Shown: positions 179 to 19,925 of the stretch, piece by piece | Numbering within the stretch: the first letter of the stretch is position 1 | Layout of the letters: the number at the start of each line of letters is the position of its first letter | Origin: a virus | Direction: 5' to 3' (one strand) | Virus genome (UHGV): UHGV-1435313 | DNA: 19,925 nucleotides | Notes under the pieces: generated by a model | Databases searched by the model: none | What the model saw: only the letters and a program-made list of their open reading frames with translations | Told to the model about the DNA's origin: nothing | Translations under genes and position numbers: made by a program

Positions 179-214
179 GTGGATAAAATAATTTTACCCA
201 CCGGATTTTTACCC

Positions 215-1372
215 ATGCTCACCGTTAAGCAGATTGAAGCAGCAAAGCCGAAAGAAAAACCATACCGCCTACTCGATGGTAATGGCCTGTACCTTTATGT
301 CCCTGTGTCAGGGAAAAAGGTATGGCAGCTTCGCTACAAGATTGACGGTAAGGAGAAAATCCTGACCGTAGGAAAATATCCGCTAATGACTTTGCAGGAG
401 GCAAGAGATAAAGCATGGACCGCGAGGAAAGACATCTCGGTTGGCATCGATCCGGTAAAGGCGAAAAAGGCTTCGTCTAACAACAATTCCTTTAGTGCGA
501 TTTACAAGGAATGGTACGAGCACAAGAAGCAAGTCTGGTCAGTAGGCTATGCAAACGAACTTGCCAAAATGTTTGATGACGACATTTTACCCATCATCGG
601 CGGTCTTGAGATTCAGGATATTGAGCCGATGCAACTGTTGGAAGTAATCCGCAGATTTGAAGATCGCGGTGCAATGGAACGAGCCAACAAAGCACGCAGA
701 AGATGCGGCGAGGTTTTCCGTTACGCTATTGTCACCGGAAGGGCTAAATATAACCCGGCACCTGACCTTGCTGACGCCATGAAGGGATACCGCAAGAAGA
801 ACTTCCCGTTTCTTCCTGCAGACCAGATCCCGGCATTCAACAAAGCACTGGCAACATTTTCAGGAAGTATCGTATCGCTCATTGCGACCAAAGTTTTACG
901 CTACACAGCCCTCAGAACAAAAGAGCTTCGTTCCATGCTATGGAAGAACGTCGATTTTGAAAACAGGATTATCACCATCGACGCCAGTGTGATGAAGGGA
1001 CGCAAAATTCATGTGGTCCCGATGTCAGACCAGGTGGTTGAACTTCTAACTACGCTAAGCTCCATCACTAAACCAGTATCAGAGTTTGTTTTTGCCGGAC
1101 GCAACGATAAGAAGAAGCCAATCTGCGAGAACGCGGTATTGCTTGTGATCAAACAAATTGGCTATGAGGGTCTGGAAAGCGGTCACGGATTCAGGCATGA
1201 ATTCAGCACGATTATGAACGAGCACGAATGGCCCGCTGATGCTATTGAAGTGCAACTAGCACATGCCAACGGCGGTTCTGTGCGTGGAATTTACAACCAT
1301 GCTCAGTATCTCGATAAGCGCAGAGAAATGATGCAATGGTGGGCGGACTGGCTTGATGAATATAAGCTATGA
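215..1372 (+). CDS. int: Site-specific tyrosine recombinase, P4/IntS-family prophage integrase (385 aa from ATG 215; the ORF track's start at 179 is a GTG that adds 12 residues)
   Basis: N-terminus MLTVKQIEAAKPKEKPYRLLDGNGLYLYV is a typical P4-family arm-binding domain start. C-terminal catalytic region has GHGFRHEF (H-x-x-R) and the tyrosine in VRGIYNHAQY. It sits directly downstream of the tRNA in the same orientation, as for argW-intS and ssrA-intA in E. coli. Confidence 0.9.
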   Translation: MLTVKQIEAAKPKEKPYRLLDGNGLYLYVPVSGKKVWQLRYKIDGKEKILTVGKYPLMTLQEARDKAWTARKDISVGIDPVKAKKASSNNNSFSAIYKEWYEHKKQVWSVGYANELAKMFDDDILPIIGGLEIQDIEPMQLLEVIRRFEDRGAMERANKARRRCGEVFRYAIVTGRAKYNPAPDLADAMKGYRKKNFPFLPADQIPAFNKALATFSGSIVSLIATKVLRYTALRTKELRSMLWKNVDFENRIITIDASVMKGRKIHVVPMSDQVVELLTTLSSITKPVSEFVFAGRNDKKKPICENAVLLVIKQIGYEGLESGHGFRHEFSTIMNEHEWPADAIEVQLAHANGGSVRGIYNHAQYLDKRREMMQWWADWLDEYKL

Positions 1373-1420: not shown

Positions 1421-3427
1421 TTAGCTAATTAACTCAATTGTCGACGAGTTAGTACAATAAGCAGGCTGCTCTGTAACGACATCCCTAACCATCATTTTAG
1501 AGCTTGGACCGTTAGCGGTTAGATCTCCTGATTCTGCTGATGAATCTCTAACTATATTATTAAATGAGCAAATACCATCTATATAGCATAATGTTGATCC
1601 TGGTCGCACATCTGAATCAGTAACAACAAACCCCGCAATAGAATCGTGAACGGTGATCGCAACATTATATGTAGTTGATTCATCTATATCCTTGATCGCA
1701 GGCCCACGACATCCACTATATGAGCAGTTAATTCTTACGCCTTTGCATGACTCATGAGATGTAGACCCGTTATTATTATTTGCTCCTGACGTATCAAGAT
1801 ACCCATTACCAGCGCCTGTATTATTTACTTCAATAAAATGAGGGCTAATTCCTGATGCACCTTCATGATAGTTGAAACCATCACGCCTATTCGAATGAGC
1901 AATGCAATTTTCAGTAATTACAATACCAACATCTAGTGCTGATAAACCGTTGGAATTTGCGTCGTATGCACAACTGAACTCACAGTTCTTTGCGTAGAAC
2001 ACACCCTGCCTAAATGTACCGTCACTTTTTACCGTAAATGCTCCTGTAGATGTTCCTATATTATGGGAACCAAAAAACTTAAACCCCTCAAGATAAACTC
2101 GATGATTGCCACTCCACACCCATACATATGGATCTCGAGCATACTGAACTGAAATCCTATTTTGATTGGTATATACTGATTCCCCATTCTTTGTGTGCAC
2201 ATAAACCTTGTATCCATCTGATGCATCCACAAACCATGTCGAAGAAGTTGATTGGCATTCAGACAAAGAATTTACTTTTTTAAGTCTTTCATATCCGAAC
2301 TTAGGACTAAAGCTTCCTGTATCAAAAACTGCCAATGGTGTATTACCTGATAAAGTAGGAGTAAATAAGTTTAATCCATTACCAAAACCCCACACCCCCT
2401 GTTCTACACATCCAGCATAAACAGGGCCGCCAACTGCTATTATATTCAAACTTGCAGTAACATTGTATAGAGAAAGAGAAGATTCCCACGGGAGAATTGT
2501 ATTCCCTCTTACATAAATGGTATTTATATTTCTGCTTATCGCTTTTGTTAATGTTTTATATGCAGTCAGCCATGAATTACCATCTCCATTGGCATCATCG
2601 CCATTTACTGGATCAACATATATAGGTGATGTTGAAAATGTCTGTCTAAACACAGACAAGTCATTGCGCATCGTTGCTGAATTACCTCTTCTTTCATACA
2701 TTATATCTCCAAATCTTGTATATCCAATAGGAGAAGTGCTTCCAATTAAAGATGATGCTCCAGTTGATACCCTTTTAATTCTTTTTAGATAATCCGACCC
2801 GTACCTATATATATCGAAATTAATATTACCAAGTATGGTATTTACTCTCTGAAAAAATGATTCCTGCCCATTGTCAACAAGCCTAACAATTTCACCACTA
2901 TCAATACTGGATGCAATCATAGATTCTTTACTATAGAATGTCTTCCCAGCTATGACTAGTAATTCATCTGTTTTTTTATCTTTTTGTGTCAGTCTTTCCA
3001 ATTCATCATATACTGTTGTATTTCCAACAATAGATGATGAGTGCCCAACAAGTTCTGAGCCATTCGTCTGCTGCAATTCCTGTCTGAATCTGTCAGGGTC
3101 ATACTTCAGCACATTCGGGAAATAGAACTGCTGCACACCATACGCATCATATACAGCCATAGAATGGCCTTGCACAGTTACGAACTTGGCAATATGTCCG
3201 TTATATGCAGGGTAACCAGCAGCATTAATGATGATTGGTTGCGATACAGGAACGTGAGAGCCGTCTTCGTTCTCCACATAAACCTGAATCTGGTTTTCAG
3301 GATTTACCGGGTCAGTGTCAATTTTACCGATATAAATTTTACCATTGGCTACGGCTTTGAAAGAACGCGCCATAGTGAAGAGTTGCGAAGGCATACTCAC
3401 TACAACATTGGGTGTAATGTCTGACAT
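1421..3427 (-). CDS. Tailspike protein (P22 gp9 / Sf6 gp14 homolog), 668 aa from the internal ATG at 3425-3427: conserved N-terminal head-binding domain plus a divergent right-handed beta-helix receptor-binding/depolymerase part
   Basis: [59 protein letters not shown] matches the P22-like tailspike head-binding domain as I recall it. An AAGG Shine-Dalgarno lies ~10 nt upstream of this ATG. The C-terminal two thirds carry beta-helix-like Asn/Gly/Ser-rich repeats ([35 protein letters not shown]). The 32-codon in-frame upstream extension (to 3523) is judged non-coding. Confidence 0.85.
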
Positions 3428-18637: not shown

Positions 18638-18880
18638 TCATGCTCCGGCAGTGAACAGGTCTAACGCTTCCTTCGACTTACGCACCGCTTCGATAGTGCG
18701 GGTCGTGATATCCGAATTAGCGCCGCCTGACTGGAAGTGAATTTTGAATAGCTCAAGCTTCAACTCGTCAGTACCAATGAACTGAAATGCTTCTTCTGCG
18801 GCTGCGTTCTGGTTCATGACCAGTTTGTAAATCTCTAGCTGGAATTTCTGTTCTTCAGTCATGGAAATAATCTCTGCCAT
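18638..18880 (-). CDS. Hypothetical protein (80 aa), translationally coupled to the HslV-like gene
   Basis: ATG at 18878-18880 preceded by GGAG at 8 nt; non-hydrophobic, acidic, predicted helical; no recognisable motif. Confidence 0.5.
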   Translation of the reverse strand: MAEIISMTEEQKFQLEIYKLVMNQNAAAEEAFQFIGTDELKLELFKIHFQSGGANSDITTRTIEAVRKSKEALDLFTAGA

Positions 18881-18905
18881 TGTTGGCTCCGTTTATCCGT
18901 TAAAA

Positions 18906-18927
18906 GGGATATCAGTTAAGTTATCCC
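18906..18927 (-). terminator. Hairpin (GGGATA/TATCCC, 10-nt loop) followed by UUUUAA on the - strand, immediately upstream of the 80-aa gene's ribosome-binding site; weak terminator / tR'-like element or operator
   Basis: Seen directly: - strand GGGAUA-ACUUAACUGA-UAUCCC-UUUUAACGG then GGAG and ATG. Confidence 0.3.
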
Positions 18928-19207
18928 GTGTAGGGTATAAGTCATTGTCGAGACCACTCATTGAATGGCCTCTGCAATAACCGATGTCTTTCCATCAGTC
19001 CGCCACCACAAAGAATCTTTTTTGCCATAAGGCTGGAGGTTCATCTTTCAGTGGCTGCCAGTGTTATTTCCCCACTTTCTGGCTTGGGTTGTTTCGCGGT
19101 GCTGCCGTTAATTAGTGACCAGAAATTAACTCCGGTTTCATTATCAAGCCCACCAGTAGATGGGCTTTGTAATGAAGAGTTGTTATGAAAATTGCTCTAA
19201 ACAAGCA

Positions 19208-19696
19208 TTAATAGCCATCAGAAGTAATCGCTACAGATTTCAATCCCTCAATGTCATCCTTGGACAGGGCGAACCATTCACCGTGCTTTCTCTTTGCGGC
19301 AAATTTGCGATGAAGCATGTTTTCAGTTTCTCTTCCACCAGGGATCAGGCACTCAAGCTTCAAGCAGTCTGGTCCAGAGTTGCCAAGCGATTTGATGCGT
19401 TGTGGAATGTTGGATGAATACCCAATTTTGGTTAGCCCAGTTTTCTTCGATGACAAAACGTATACCTGAGGAGGTTCTTTTCTCTGGTCTTCCATTACAC
19501 GTCTCATTGTTGCCATAAGTCCGCCGTGCATCAGCATTTCAACAAAGAACGCTGACCGAACACCTGACGACTTAAGCATGCCAGAAAATTCACTTGCCAA
19601 TTCCATTAACTCTGCGATGTTTTCAGGAACTTTTTGGCAGTTATCTTCCTTGTATAAGGAAATCATTCTTTGAAGCTTTTCTTCTAATTGGTTCAT
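19208..19696 (-). CDS. T5orf172 (MUG113) domain protein, GIY-YIG-like superfamily, putative nuclease; 162 aa from ATG 19694-19696
   Basis: C-terminal half PQVYVLSSKKTGLTKIGYSSNIPQRIKSLG...ETENMLHRKFAAKRKHGEWFALS fits the T5orf172 consensus (vYvl...KIGit...Rl..L...E..lH......EWF). Start chosen at M13 because AAAGGTAAAG precedes it; the track's GTG at 19730-19732 lies inside a hairpin. Confidence 0.7.
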   Translation of the reverse strand: MNQLEEKLQRMISLYKEDNCQKVPENIAELMELASEFSGMLKSSGVRSAFFVEMLMHGGLMATMRRVMEDQRKEPPQVYVLSSKKTGLTKIGYSSNIPQRIKSLGNSGPDCLKLECLIPGGRETENMLHRKFAAKRKHGEWFALSKDDIEGLKSVAITSDGY

Positions 19697-19807
19697 AGCG
19701 TCTTTACCTTTTAGAAAGTGAGCCTGTCTCACAGAAAAGCCGCCCCGAGATGGTCGCCACCATATACGGCAGTTCTCAGGCTCAACTTTCTGAAAGGCTC
19801 GGGTGAT

Positions 19808-19835
19808 GTAATATGCGCGTGAGATGCGCTGTGAA
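19808..19835 (-). promoter_or_regulatory. Candidate sigma70 promoter for the T5orf172 gene (-35 TTCACA, 16-nt spacer, -10 TATTAC on the - strand)
   Basis: Hexamers seen on the - strand just downstream of the terminator at 19846-19871; spacer contains the direct repeat ATGCGC-GTGAG-ATGCGC. Weak match. Confidence 0.2.
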
Positions 19836-19845
19836 ATTCAGATGT

Positions 19846-19871
19846 AAAAAAAGCCCCGCATCGCGAGGCCC
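19846..19871 (-). terminator. Rho-independent terminator (7-bp GC-rich stem, 3-nt loop, U7) on the - strand, ~24 nt downstream of the upstream gene's stop
   Basis: - strand RNA GCCUCGC-GAU-GCGGGGC-UUUUUUU (six G-C pairs and one G-U wobble), seen directly. Confidence 0.6.
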
Positions 19872-19895
19872 ATTCTATTATTCGGGTGCTCATGA

Positions 19896-19925
19896 TCAGG
19901 CCGCCGCATAGAGCAATTTCATCTG
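19896..19925 (-). CDS. 3' end of an upstream - strand gene truncated by the window edge (ends ...QMKLLYAAA, stop TGA at 19896-19898)
   Basis: Open frame running off the window with a stop just before the strong terminator; identity unknown. Confidence 0.3.
   Translation of the reverse strand, partial: QMKLLYAAA

Follow-up and report, generated by a model that had tools for sequence, protein, structure and literature searches.

A T5orf172 gene as probable exchangeable cargo of a conserved late slot with a structured leader RNA in lambdoid and P22-like phages

Morons of lambdoid phages are autonomous insertions that bring a promoter and a terminator along with their gene and are expressed from the prophage. 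Is the T5orf172 gene of the virus genome UHGV-1435313 such an insertion, or do the signals around it belong to the place where it sits? A preliminary description of this DNA had taken the first view, with a terminator, a candidate promoter and a structured leader attributed to the gene itself. The gene and its surroundings were analyzed in the window, i.e. the whole stretch of 19,925 nucleotides; the features discussed below are listed in Table 1.

Table 1. Position and basis of the features at the T5orf172 locus, in window coordinates.
Feature	Position	Strand	Basis
DUF2560 gene, first conserved gene past the slot in P22-like phages	18638..18880	-	Pfam DUF2560, 2.6e-43
Pseudogenised N-terminal extension of the DUF2560 gene (SE1/ST64T orf118-like)	18924..19028	-	tblastn
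Imperfect 16-nt inverted repeat I2, core AAGCCCA/UGGGCUU	19137..19176	-	Conserved downstream flank
T5orf172/MUG113 gene (GIY-YIG superfamily), exchangeable cargo	19208..19696	-	Pfam, PHROG 4284
GIY-YIG-fold nuclease domain, residues 76-155	19232..19471	-	
N-terminal three-helix bundle, residues 1-75, net acidic	19472..19696	-	
Conserved leader RNA element, match of covariance model R1, ending at the start codon	19694..19842	-	156 bits, E = 3e-35
Long imperfect hairpin of ~93 nt, basal stem CCUUU paired with AAAGG	19706..19798	-	
Shine-Dalgarno AAAGG, within the basal stem	19707..19711	-	
5-bp hairpin GUGAG-ACAGG-CUCAC, local alternative of the internal loop and 3' arm	19718..19732	-	
Invariant GCGCAUCUCACGCGC box at the leader 5' edge, possible 4-bp hairpin	19815..19829	-	Alignments A1, A3, A7
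Intrinsic terminator, GGGCCUCGCG-AUG-CGGGGCUU then U-run	19846..19871	-	Terminator scan
3' end of HK97 gp73-like KilA-N/P63C accessory gene, last 9 codons and stop (..QMKLLYAAA*)	19896..19925	-	

The T5orf172 gene and its product

The coding sequence is real and its product has 162 aa, the ATG at 19696 being the likely start codon. The mechanical call, a 174-aa ORF starting with GTG at 19732, was discarded: it begins inside the leader hairpin. The G+C content of the gene is 42.9%, against 47.7% for the whole window, and that of its neighbours (HslV-like, terS and terL) is 49-52%; terS and terL lie about 1 kb downstream.

That the gene is of the T5orf172/GIY-YIG type, as proposed in the preliminary description, was borne out by Pfam: MUG113 (PF13455; 6e-15, 56 bits, cut-off 22.3) and T5orf172 (PF10544; 2.8e-10, 41 bits, cut-off 20) both score above their cut-offs, and the GIY-YIG profile PF01541 (0.19, 12.5 bits) falls below its own. 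An NCBIfam search with the protein returned no family match. In the structure model the C-terminal domain adopts a GIY-YIG fold (beta-beta-alpha-beta-alpha core) with Y79, K90-I-G, R100, E125, H129 and E140-W-F as conserved residues; in 30-44 divergent homologues all of these are invariant save Y79, which is nearly so. The roles of the first-strand Tyr, the helix 1 Arg and the metal-binding Glu were assigned by analogy with Odn and I-TevI. Odn, a T5orf172 nuclease, keeps the corresponding Arg and Glu, and its E180A mutant was used to test catalysis (PMC8263062). Judged from its sequence, the active site of the GIY-YIG (T5orf172/MUG113) domain is predicted to be intact in this two-domain protein, and the nuclease or homing-endonuclease-like role put forward earlier is plausible.

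The N-terminal region, credited at first with ~85 aa, has ~75 according to Pfam and the structure model. It was predicted to form an acidic three-helix bundle that resembles only generic helical bundles. Residues 1-75 have no Pfam family match and no CxxC motif, and neither Pfam nor the structure model reveals a recognisable DNA-binding fold in them. Searched against the PDB as a single sequence the protein gave no match; with a profile the sole match was T4 EndoII (E = 0.52).

HK106 gp64 (YP_007151734) is a protein of the same length and 99% identity, so the gene was already known; with a RefSeq annotation and this near-identical counterpart it is, taken alone, ordinary. The two genes do not differ in substance, that of HK106 likewise following the lysis genes and being preceded by the shared terminator and leader. 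The packaging modules of the two phages are different, and where HK106 has Rz upstream of the gene the window phage has KilA-N. Epsilon34 gp68, an orthologue with 33% identity, holds the corresponding slot of a P22-like phage. HK106 gp64 and epsilon34 gp68/g341c gp64 are annotated 'GIY-YIG nuclease family protein' and fall in PHROG 4284. The gene is present in 82 of 5,426 complete E. coli genomes; when complete E. coli genomes were searched for the exact arrangement of the window, none covered at least 80% of it. A scan of genome contigs for the subfamily returned one identical copy, on a contig that is probably mis-binned, and distant T5orf172 domains of Streptomyces.

Terminator, leader RNA and promoter scan

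The terminator stem has 9 bp, 6 of them G-C pairs, and is followed by a T-run. Homologous rho-independent terminators are annotated in the records of HK106, epsilon34 and phi80, and all leader alleles have a terminator at the equivalent position, with differing sequences. Thus the terminator of the preliminary description exists, but it does not belong to the T5orf172 gene since it recurs before other cargos. The gene that ends upstream of it is not a lysis gene but a KilA-N gene; its 3' end has an exact 36-nt match in HK97, HK022, HK446 and mEp contigs, and its C-terminus is also found in a 251-aa cargo cluster.

The leader comprises 149 nt (19697-19845). The MFE is -53 kcal/mol, the MFE z-score of the long hairpin is -4.0, and the probability of AAAGGU being unpaired is 0.00-0.11; every allele type folds alike when folded alone. 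In the covariation analysis 96.3% of cells are paired, against 36-47% with slid controls, and compensatory changes occur at 21 of the 34 hairpin pairs; these counts come from alignments that had been fitted to the model, and the slid controls and the independent single-sequence folds agree with it. The basal stem itself covaries (CG to UA and AU to GC changes), AAGG is invariant, and the spacer to the AUG measures 7-11 nt across alleles. The AUG is accessible, which may permit a degree of translation. MFE alone does not separate the strands (-50.5 vs -52.8 kcal/mol). The excess of G-U over A-C pairs (88 to 18) favours the mRNA strand as the site of the structure, and disfavours a DNA cruciform, an attC-like site or a structure of the antisense strand.

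The perfect 5-bp hairpin to which attention had been drawn is present inside this larger hairpin, but its significance was not upheld: it is absent from the MFE and centroid structures and stands at chance level, the leader having 2 such hairpins where shuffles have 0.83 on average and 21% of them have at least 2. It was therefore rejected as a separate regulatory element. An upstream ORF running through the 5' arm (54 aa, 19729-19893) was also rejected: its frames, starts and stops vary across 59 alleles. In the window allele this ORF stops at the UGA of the internal loop and could couple translation.

The leader is widespread. More than 100 copies were found in the phage loci examined, and 906 of 5,426 complete E. 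coli genomes, i.e. about one in six, contain it; its hosts include P22, HK97, HK620, phi80, epsilon34, Stx phages, and Klebsiella and Hafnia phages. Together with the terminator it recurs, up to the start codon, before Rha, KilA-N, Bro-N, HNH and T5orf172 genes. Over the stretch between 19869 and the start codon, HK620 (KilA-N), phi80 (Rha) and epsilon34 (the 33%-identical T5orf172) are 86-88% identical to the window. Elsewhere among E. coli genomes Rha genes follow an identical leader allele, and in a low-GC prophage the leader stands before a 49%-identical T5orf172 gene. The structured leader announced in the preliminary description is thus real and strongly folded, but being common to unrelated cargos it is not the gene's own. 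Its extent suggests that some annotated start codons, e.g. that of P22 rha, fall inside it. At its 5' edge the GCGC box abuts the U-tract of the terminator in some alleles. Against Rfam 15 the best matches of the leader were mir-955 (17 bits, gathering 50) and Proteo-phage-1 (17, gathering 42), both at chance level; a tRNA/tmRNA search found none, and no paper was found in the searched literature with the leader sequence strings.

A promoter had been proposed within the leader. The scan for sigma-70-type consensus on both strands of 18600-19925 found 0 promoter-like sites (2.2 +/- 1.6 in shuffles). The window allele has a weak TTCACA-N16-TATTAC pair (9/12), but the -35-like and -10-like stretches vary between leader alleles: the putative -35 region is AATTTCAC in some and CAGTAAAC in others, and alleles whose GCGC box adjoins the terminator lack it. 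The candidate promoter was accordingly abandoned. The upstream terminator and the sequestration of the Shine-Dalgarno argue for repression outside Q-antiterminated late transcription, not for expression in the lysogen, where the gene is probably silent.

This arrangement has a parallel in T4, where RBS-sequestering hairpins restrict the translation of I-TevI/II/III, segB, mobE and late genes (PMC2988022). As in T4, the Shine-Dalgarno of a nuclease gene is paired within a hairpin of high stability, the transcript would be polycistronic and made by read-through, and terminators would take part in a control of several layers. In T4 a late promoter in or beside the hairpin yields transcripts lacking the 5' arm (PMC2988022), whereas the sigma-70 scan of both strands gave no promoter-like site in or beside the window hairpin. 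A further difference from T4 is that one homologous, covarying leader is common to many unrelated cargos across phage genera. The Gifsy-1 IsrK-orf45-anrP locus, in which a trans-acting short RNA activates an antirepressor-like prophage gene, also has a terminator followed by a read-through transcript, which is there translationally inactive through structure (PMC4825925). That locus lies after Q, the window slot after the lysis genes, and homology between the two leaders was rejected: model R1 finds nothing in Gifsy-1, and Rfam IsrK has no match in the window.

Exchange of cargos between conserved flanks

Depending on the phage the slot holds Rha, KilA-N, Bro-N, HNH or T5orf172, and tandem slots occur. 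Rha and KilA-N, which are not nucleases, dominate and are exchanged at identical junctions; a nuclease is thus not required for exchange. One locus (L094) has an HNH endonuclease in the slot, in another (L061) the slot is empty or deleted, and a third (L080) carries a frameshifted copy. In a relative with the same flanks (H156) Rha stands in place of T5orf172. Comparison of the locus among relatives therefore shows T5orf172 to be variably present, with other cargos or an empty slot elsewhere, and the claim that the gene is accessory, found in some related phages and missing from others, holds.

The exchange junctions lie at the start codon or in the leader 3' arm on one side, and ~30-90 nt past the stop codon on the other. 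Identity between the window and HK106 is 100% from 19161 to 19730 but only 73-80% upstream. The identical CDS is found in P22-like, HK97-like and lambda-like packaging backgrounds; in a lambda-like prophage and in HK106 it follows Rz. Members of the subfamily adjoin KilA-N, Bro-N or Arc genes, or sit between lysis and terminase genes.

On the downstream side, the 327-bp interval (18881-19207) had been described as non-coding. It has indeed no long ORF, but part of it is a pseudogene remnant, which shows 94% identity over 35 aa to SE1 orf118 with in-frame stops (tblastn); the epsilon34 record carries a note to the same effect on the homologous stretch. The inverted repeat of this flank lacks a U-tract, the sole terminator-like site being upstream of the T5orf172 gene. 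The flank with the repeat is 97.6% identical in HK620, where it comes directly after hkbL.

Competing explanations and meaning of the locus

The reading that we favour, and hold to be rather probable, is that the gene is a swappable nuclease cargo of the late operon, housed in a conserved slot of lambdoid and P22-like phages where the terminator and the masked RBS act as a lock. The slot would be made of the intrinsic terminator, the invariant GCGC box and the ~93-nt hairpin masking the Shine-Dalgarno, and would end exactly at the start codon. Transcription would occur only when Q-modified RNA polymerase passes the terminator in lytic growth, and translation would stay low or need the hairpin to be opened, for which RNase III cutting of the 20-26-bp stem appears the most plausible candidate. 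The product may act late in infection as a DNA endonuclease, a selfish or competitive element that would be either homing-like or aimed at co-resident phages or satellites. The conserved leader and the downstream flank would provide the homology for the recombination that spreads the cassette.

A true site-specific homing endonuclease, which would cut co-infecting phages devoid of T5orf172, at the homologous slot or in a neighbouring gene, and have its cassette copied in by repair from the genome that bears it, is a rather unlikely explanation. T5orf172 is a phage homing-endonuclease family whose genes lie at exchange boundaries, near terminase genes (PMC10448857), and the window gene shares with them this location and the variable presence among relatives. 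Like the ICP1-like and T5-like T5orf172 homing genes and Odn, it has a terminal nuclease domain that keeps the catalytic Arg and Glu. The identical CDS in three packaging backgrounds, behind different leader alleles and with sharp junctions, and the HNH endonuclease of L094 in the same slot also fit homing, as does the combination of RBS-sequestering hairpin and upstream terminator, typical of T4 homing endonuclease genes (PMC2988022). However, 87% of T5orf172 homing endonucleases have Zn-finger DNA-binding domains (CapR/DUF723/DUF4397; PMC10448857), whereas the window protein has neither a Zn-finger nor a RepA-like domain; its acidic N-terminus, in which no DNA-binding domain is recognisable, makes sequence-specific homing doubtful. 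The protein is also much smaller than the ICP1-like and T5-like homing endonucleases, and unlike them is encoded by temperate lambdoid phages. Moreover the dominant cargos, Rha and KilA-N, use the same junctions, and the gene is in only 82 of the 906 leader-bearing E. coli genomes, which does not point to a sweep.

An autonomous moron, with its promoter in the leader, whose nuclease would be made from the prophage and serve the lysogen in superinfection exclusion or defence, is improbable. As for morons, the gene is accessory, stands between conserved late genes, deviates in G+C (here low) and is variably present; the insulating upstream terminator and the weak hexamer pair of the window allele would also suit a moron. 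GIY-YIG domains occur in defence proteins, and the defence protein PD-T4-3 is among the fold matches of the T5orf172 protein. But PADLOC-DB gave no convincing defence profile, the sole match being the candidate PDC-S57 (7e-6, weak and over part of the nuclease domain), and the neighbours are phage late genes, with no defence partners. Unlike for morons, the scan found no promoter of the gene's own, and the only terminator-like site lies upstream of it; the terminator, the leader and the RBS hairpin belong to the slot, and this leader, common to other cargos, masks the Shine-Dalgarno. The self-contained and independently expressed unit of the preliminary description is thus not sustained.

In ICP1, T5orf172 genes associate with Rha-like and Bro-N genes (PMC10448857; PMC8263062). 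A domesticated, non-cleaving T5orf172 protein, i.e. a DNA-binding regulator or protein-binding factor of the Rha/KilA-N/Bro-N 'antirepressor-like' guild comparable to CapR, the T5orf172-derived repressor of the PLE satellite (PMC10448857), would fit the slot and leader shared with Rha, KilA-N and Bro-N proteins and the KilA-N, Bro-N or Arc genes adjoining subfamily members, but it is very improbable given that Tyr, Arg, Glu, E125 and H129 are (near-)invariant in distant homologues, as expected of an active enzyme, and that no DNA-binding domain was detected in the protein.

Beyond the swappable cargo in its locked slot, we tentatively consider that terminator, GCGC box and hairpin may constitute an undescribed, portable "expression dock" RNA in temperate phages of enterobacteria, serving both as homology arm and as late-lytic translational lock. 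If so, start-codon-precise cassettes of toxic DNA-targeting genes (Rha, KilA-N, Bro-N, HNH, T5orf172) would be shuffled behind a lock that is opened late by a specific trigger, which could be RNase III or a trans-acting RNA or protein of the phage or host. The T5orf172 nuclease would then be one interchangeable weapon in phage-phage or phage-satellite conflict.

The importance of the locus lies in its setting: a covariation-backed leader in classic model phages, without an Rfam family and absent from the searched literature. It corrects the tempting misreading of such genes as morons expressed in the lysogen. Through the leader, the long-known, functionally obscure guild of Rha, KilA-N, Bro-N and T5orf172 is linked to a single element used in common for regulation and recombination. 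Tractable phages thereby allow direct tests of the timing and manner in which these often-toxic accessory proteins are made, and of why the lysis-packaging junction is a hot-spot of mosaicism.

Exchange of cargo genes behind a common leader

The intrinsic terminator described upstream of the T5orf172 gene was recovered by a terminator scan, and homologous ones are annotated in HK106, epsilon34 and phi80. The description of gene, terminator and leader as a self-contained module is wrong in its key point: terminator and leader are not the gene's own, they belong to a slot common to unrelated cargos. The stretch 19692-19869 is 86–88% identical to HK620, where the cargo is KilA-N hkbK with hkbL, and to epsilon34 (blastn); this similarity ends at the start codon and returns at about 19118-19174. 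The same element stands in front of rha in phi80 and Hafnia phage yong1, before a "DNA-binding protein" gene in a Klebsiella phage and before an unannotated gene in Stx phages.

Pattern scanning of viral contigs yielded 120 loci, which were grouped by the ORF that begins at the conserved ATG. The cargo is of the Rha type at 66 loci, the KilA-N type at 20, T5orf172 at 12, a 251-aa KilA-N/P63C type at 8, a second Rha type at 4 and a 234-aa type at 2; an HNH endonuclease, a membrane protein and a frameshifted T5orf172 (L080, 95 aa) occur once each, and three loci hold truncated fragments of 50–73 aa. In a single deletion derivative (L061, 3774-3916) the leader is broken in its internal loop and fused to the downstream flank, so that the 3' arm, the Shine-Dalgarno and the cargo are absent. 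Cargo exchange is precise to the start codon, and the position of the terminator is conserved.

The leader is found in 906 of 5,426 complete E. coli genomes, among which the allele identical to that of the window is followed by Rha or T5orf172 genes. Rha takes the place of T5orf172 in a close relative of the window's flanks, in keeping with the accessory status that had been proposed for the gene. HK106 is 100% identical to the window over 19161-19730 and 73–80% identical over 19731-19880; judging by this step, the most recent exchange had its upstream junction within the leader's 3' arm. By eye, Rha-type and KilA-N-type cargos (e.g. loci L014 and L003) have a similar C-terminal tail of ~40 residues ending IPGLP, which suggests domain shuffling within the slot.

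Some phages hold more than one copy. In Stx2a phages a second leader lies between R and Rz, ahead of a Bro-N-like ORF (locus L005 in the table), and L005 has a further copy after Rz, preceding a Rha-type gene. In HK97, HK022 and mEp phages (loci L153-L156, L163) a divergent copy (~52 bits) precedes gp73; two of these loci, L156 and L163, hold two modules in tandem, the second cargo being of 155 aa. Since the gene upstream in the window is gp73-like, the phage from which the window comes probably also has two terminator-leader-cargo modules in tandem. A lysis gene at this place was ruled out, the CDS ending at 19896 being the gp73-like KilA-N tail. In P22 (L165, NC_002371) a divergent copy precedes rha (72 bits, E = 2e-16). 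At locus position 276, the annotated start of rha falls within the hairpin, 69 nt upstream of the conserved ATG at 345; P22 Rha thus probably has about 178 aa instead of 201.

Positions of the features in the window and, where a locus is named, in other phages
Feature	Position	Strand	Remarks
Portal, P22-type	14179-16377	-	ORF
Large terminase	16308-17720	-	ORF
Small terminase, Sf6-type	17717-18142	-	ORF
HslV-like ORF, 162 aa	18148-18636	-	PHROG 1040 ('peptidase HslV family', 3e-37); no Pfam family matched
Pseudogenised N-terminal extension of DUF2560 gene	18924-19028	-	94% identity over 35 aa to start of SE1 orf118
Imperfect 16-nt inverted repeat, core AAGCCCA/TGGGCTT	19137-19176		just 3' of T5orf172 stop codon
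T5orf172 gene, 162 aa	19208-19696	-	ATG at 19696
Leader	19697-19845	-	149 nt
5-bp hairpin	19718-19732		within leader
Box GCGCAUCUCACGCGC	19815-19829	-	within leader
Intrinsic terminator	19846-19871	-	
3' end of KilA-N/P63C gene, HK97 gp73-like (..QMKLLYAAA, stop)	19896-19925	-	upstream of terminator
L005, 189-aa Bro-N/antirepressor-like ORF	2303-2872	-	directly behind second leader copy
L005, second leader copy, divergent	2870-3016	-	between endolysin and Rz genes
P22 (L165), divergent leader copy	196-347		before rha

The leader as a structured RNA

The window's leader has a folding z-score of -4.0, and the same irregular hairpin was obtained from every allele type folded singly, including the Klebsiella, Hafnia, low-GC, HK97 and P22 variants. 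Covariation was assayed on 44–59 distinct copies aligned with R1, a covariance model of the leader, the controls being the slid structure and 500 shuffles. Standard pairs were formed in 96–97% of cells (36–50% in slid controls), 20–21 of 34 pairs showed compensatory double changes (1–7) and the covariation score was 0.18–0.27 (0.03–0.05). None of the 500 shuffles matched the observed values. Pairing is somewhat inflated because the alignments were fitted to the model; the independent single-sequence folds nevertheless agree. G-U pairs outnumber A-C pairs (88 vs 18), an excess that assigns the structure to the mRNA strand.

In the basal stem CCUUU pairs with an invariant AAAGG located 7–11 nt upstream of the AUG, and in the predicted ensemble the probability of these bases being unpaired is at most 0.11. 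The leader RNA is thus predicted to occlude the Shine-Dalgarno. The 5-bp hairpin first noticed there does exist in the sequence, but chance alone would produce perfect hairpins of this length in a leader of such size, and it is unpopulated in the predicted fold; it represents another way for the internal loop and 3' arm to fold locally. Every leader copy has the box GCGCAUCUCACGCGC unchanged, at times fused straight to the terminator U-tract. None of its four possible pairs ever varies, so variation is silent on its structure.

No Rfam family matches the leader, a conserved upstream ORF was looked for within it and not found, and no printed occurrence of its sequence was found in the literature searched. 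The IsrK-anrP leader of Gifsy-1 was considered as a relative and is not homologous; it is a functional analogue.

The T5orf172 gene and its setting

The window, transcribed on the minus strand, represents the late region of a P22-like prophage. The T5orf172 gene is next upstream of the DUF2560 gene, which with the HslV-like ORF lies upstream of the terminase and portal ORFs. This HslV-like ORF, between DUF2560 and terS, encodes an uncharacterised proteasome-like protein. The 327-bp interval downstream of the gene, previously taken as non-coding, holds two features. One is a decayed DUF2560 extension, intact in phage SE1 as orf118 and broken here by in-frame stop codons, the internal ATG at 18880 being used. 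The other is the inverted repeat, which has no U-tract and is kept in HK106 and, immediately behind hkbL, in HK620; possible roles are those of stabiliser, processing site or downstream recombination arm. Most features of the preliminary description are present in the sequence.

The assignment of the gene itself was confirmed (MUG113, 6e-15; T5orf172, 2.8e-10), while the GIY-YIG profile remained below threshold. It is essentially a known gene: the protein is 99% identical to HK106 gp64, and epsilon34 gp68 (33% identical) has the same architecture in the same slot. At ≥99% identity the gene occurs in 82 of the 5,426 E. coli genomes. An identical CDS is found in three backgrounds, namely an HK97-like phage and a lambda-like prophage (after the lysis genes in both) and the P22-like window; the G+C of the gene is 42.9%, that of the window 47.7%. 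A 100% identical copy also occurs on a 2.9-kb contig assigned to a Bacillota MAG (L138, JAEWTL010000129.1), which is most likely a piece of enterobacterial phage DNA binned in error.

The AlphaFold2 model (pLDDT 87.7) has three N-terminal helices (residues 3–71) followed by a beta-beta-alpha-beta-alpha-beta-alpha domain. Searches with the whole model return mostly generic helical bundles, and T4 EndoII is the only match, a weak one, of a profile search of PDB sequences. K90-I-G, R100, E125, H129 and E140-W-F are invariant in 30–44 divergent homologues and Y79 nearly so; the corresponding Arg and Glu are retained in Odn, a characterised T5orf172 nuclease (Barth et al. 2021, PMC8263062). Conservation and model together point to an intact active site in the nuclease domain. 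The domain family counts 38,315 cluster representatives, whereas the N-terminal bundle is limited to a small subfamily of ~160-aa proteins.

Expression and role

In lambda, Q-modified polymerase reads through terminators; by analogy, transcription of the cargo would be confined to late lytic growth. The hairpin may then hold translation low, or make it depend on an opener, for which RNase III is the obvious putative candidate given stems of 20–26 bp. An internal promoter is the solution used in T4 (Edgell, Gibb and Belfort 2010, PMC2988022), whereas neither the candidate promoter earlier placed in the leader nor any other sigma-70-like site was found on either strand of 18600-19925.

That Rha, KilA-N, Bro-N, HNH and T5orf172 share one slot suggests a guild of accessory factors that target DNA and are deployed late. 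The surroundings of the subfamily members support this reading: the members adjoin KilA-N/P63C, Arc or Bro-N genes, or lie between lysis and terminase genes. The preferred reading of the protein is an endonuclease whose role is selfish or competitive. A homing endonuclease in the strict, site-specific sense is less likely, since a DNA-binding domain is missing: of the T5orf172 homing endonucleases in the survey of Barth, Dunham and Seed (2023, PMC10448857), 87% have Zn-finger DNA-binding domains, whereas the bundle of the window's protein is net acidic and shows no Zn-finger or helix-turn-helix features. A defence moron expressed in the lysogen is the least supported reading. Rather than the T5orf172 gene, the object of interest is the shared leader RNA with the cassette slot that it defines; both appear to be undescribed, and both can be tested in model phages.
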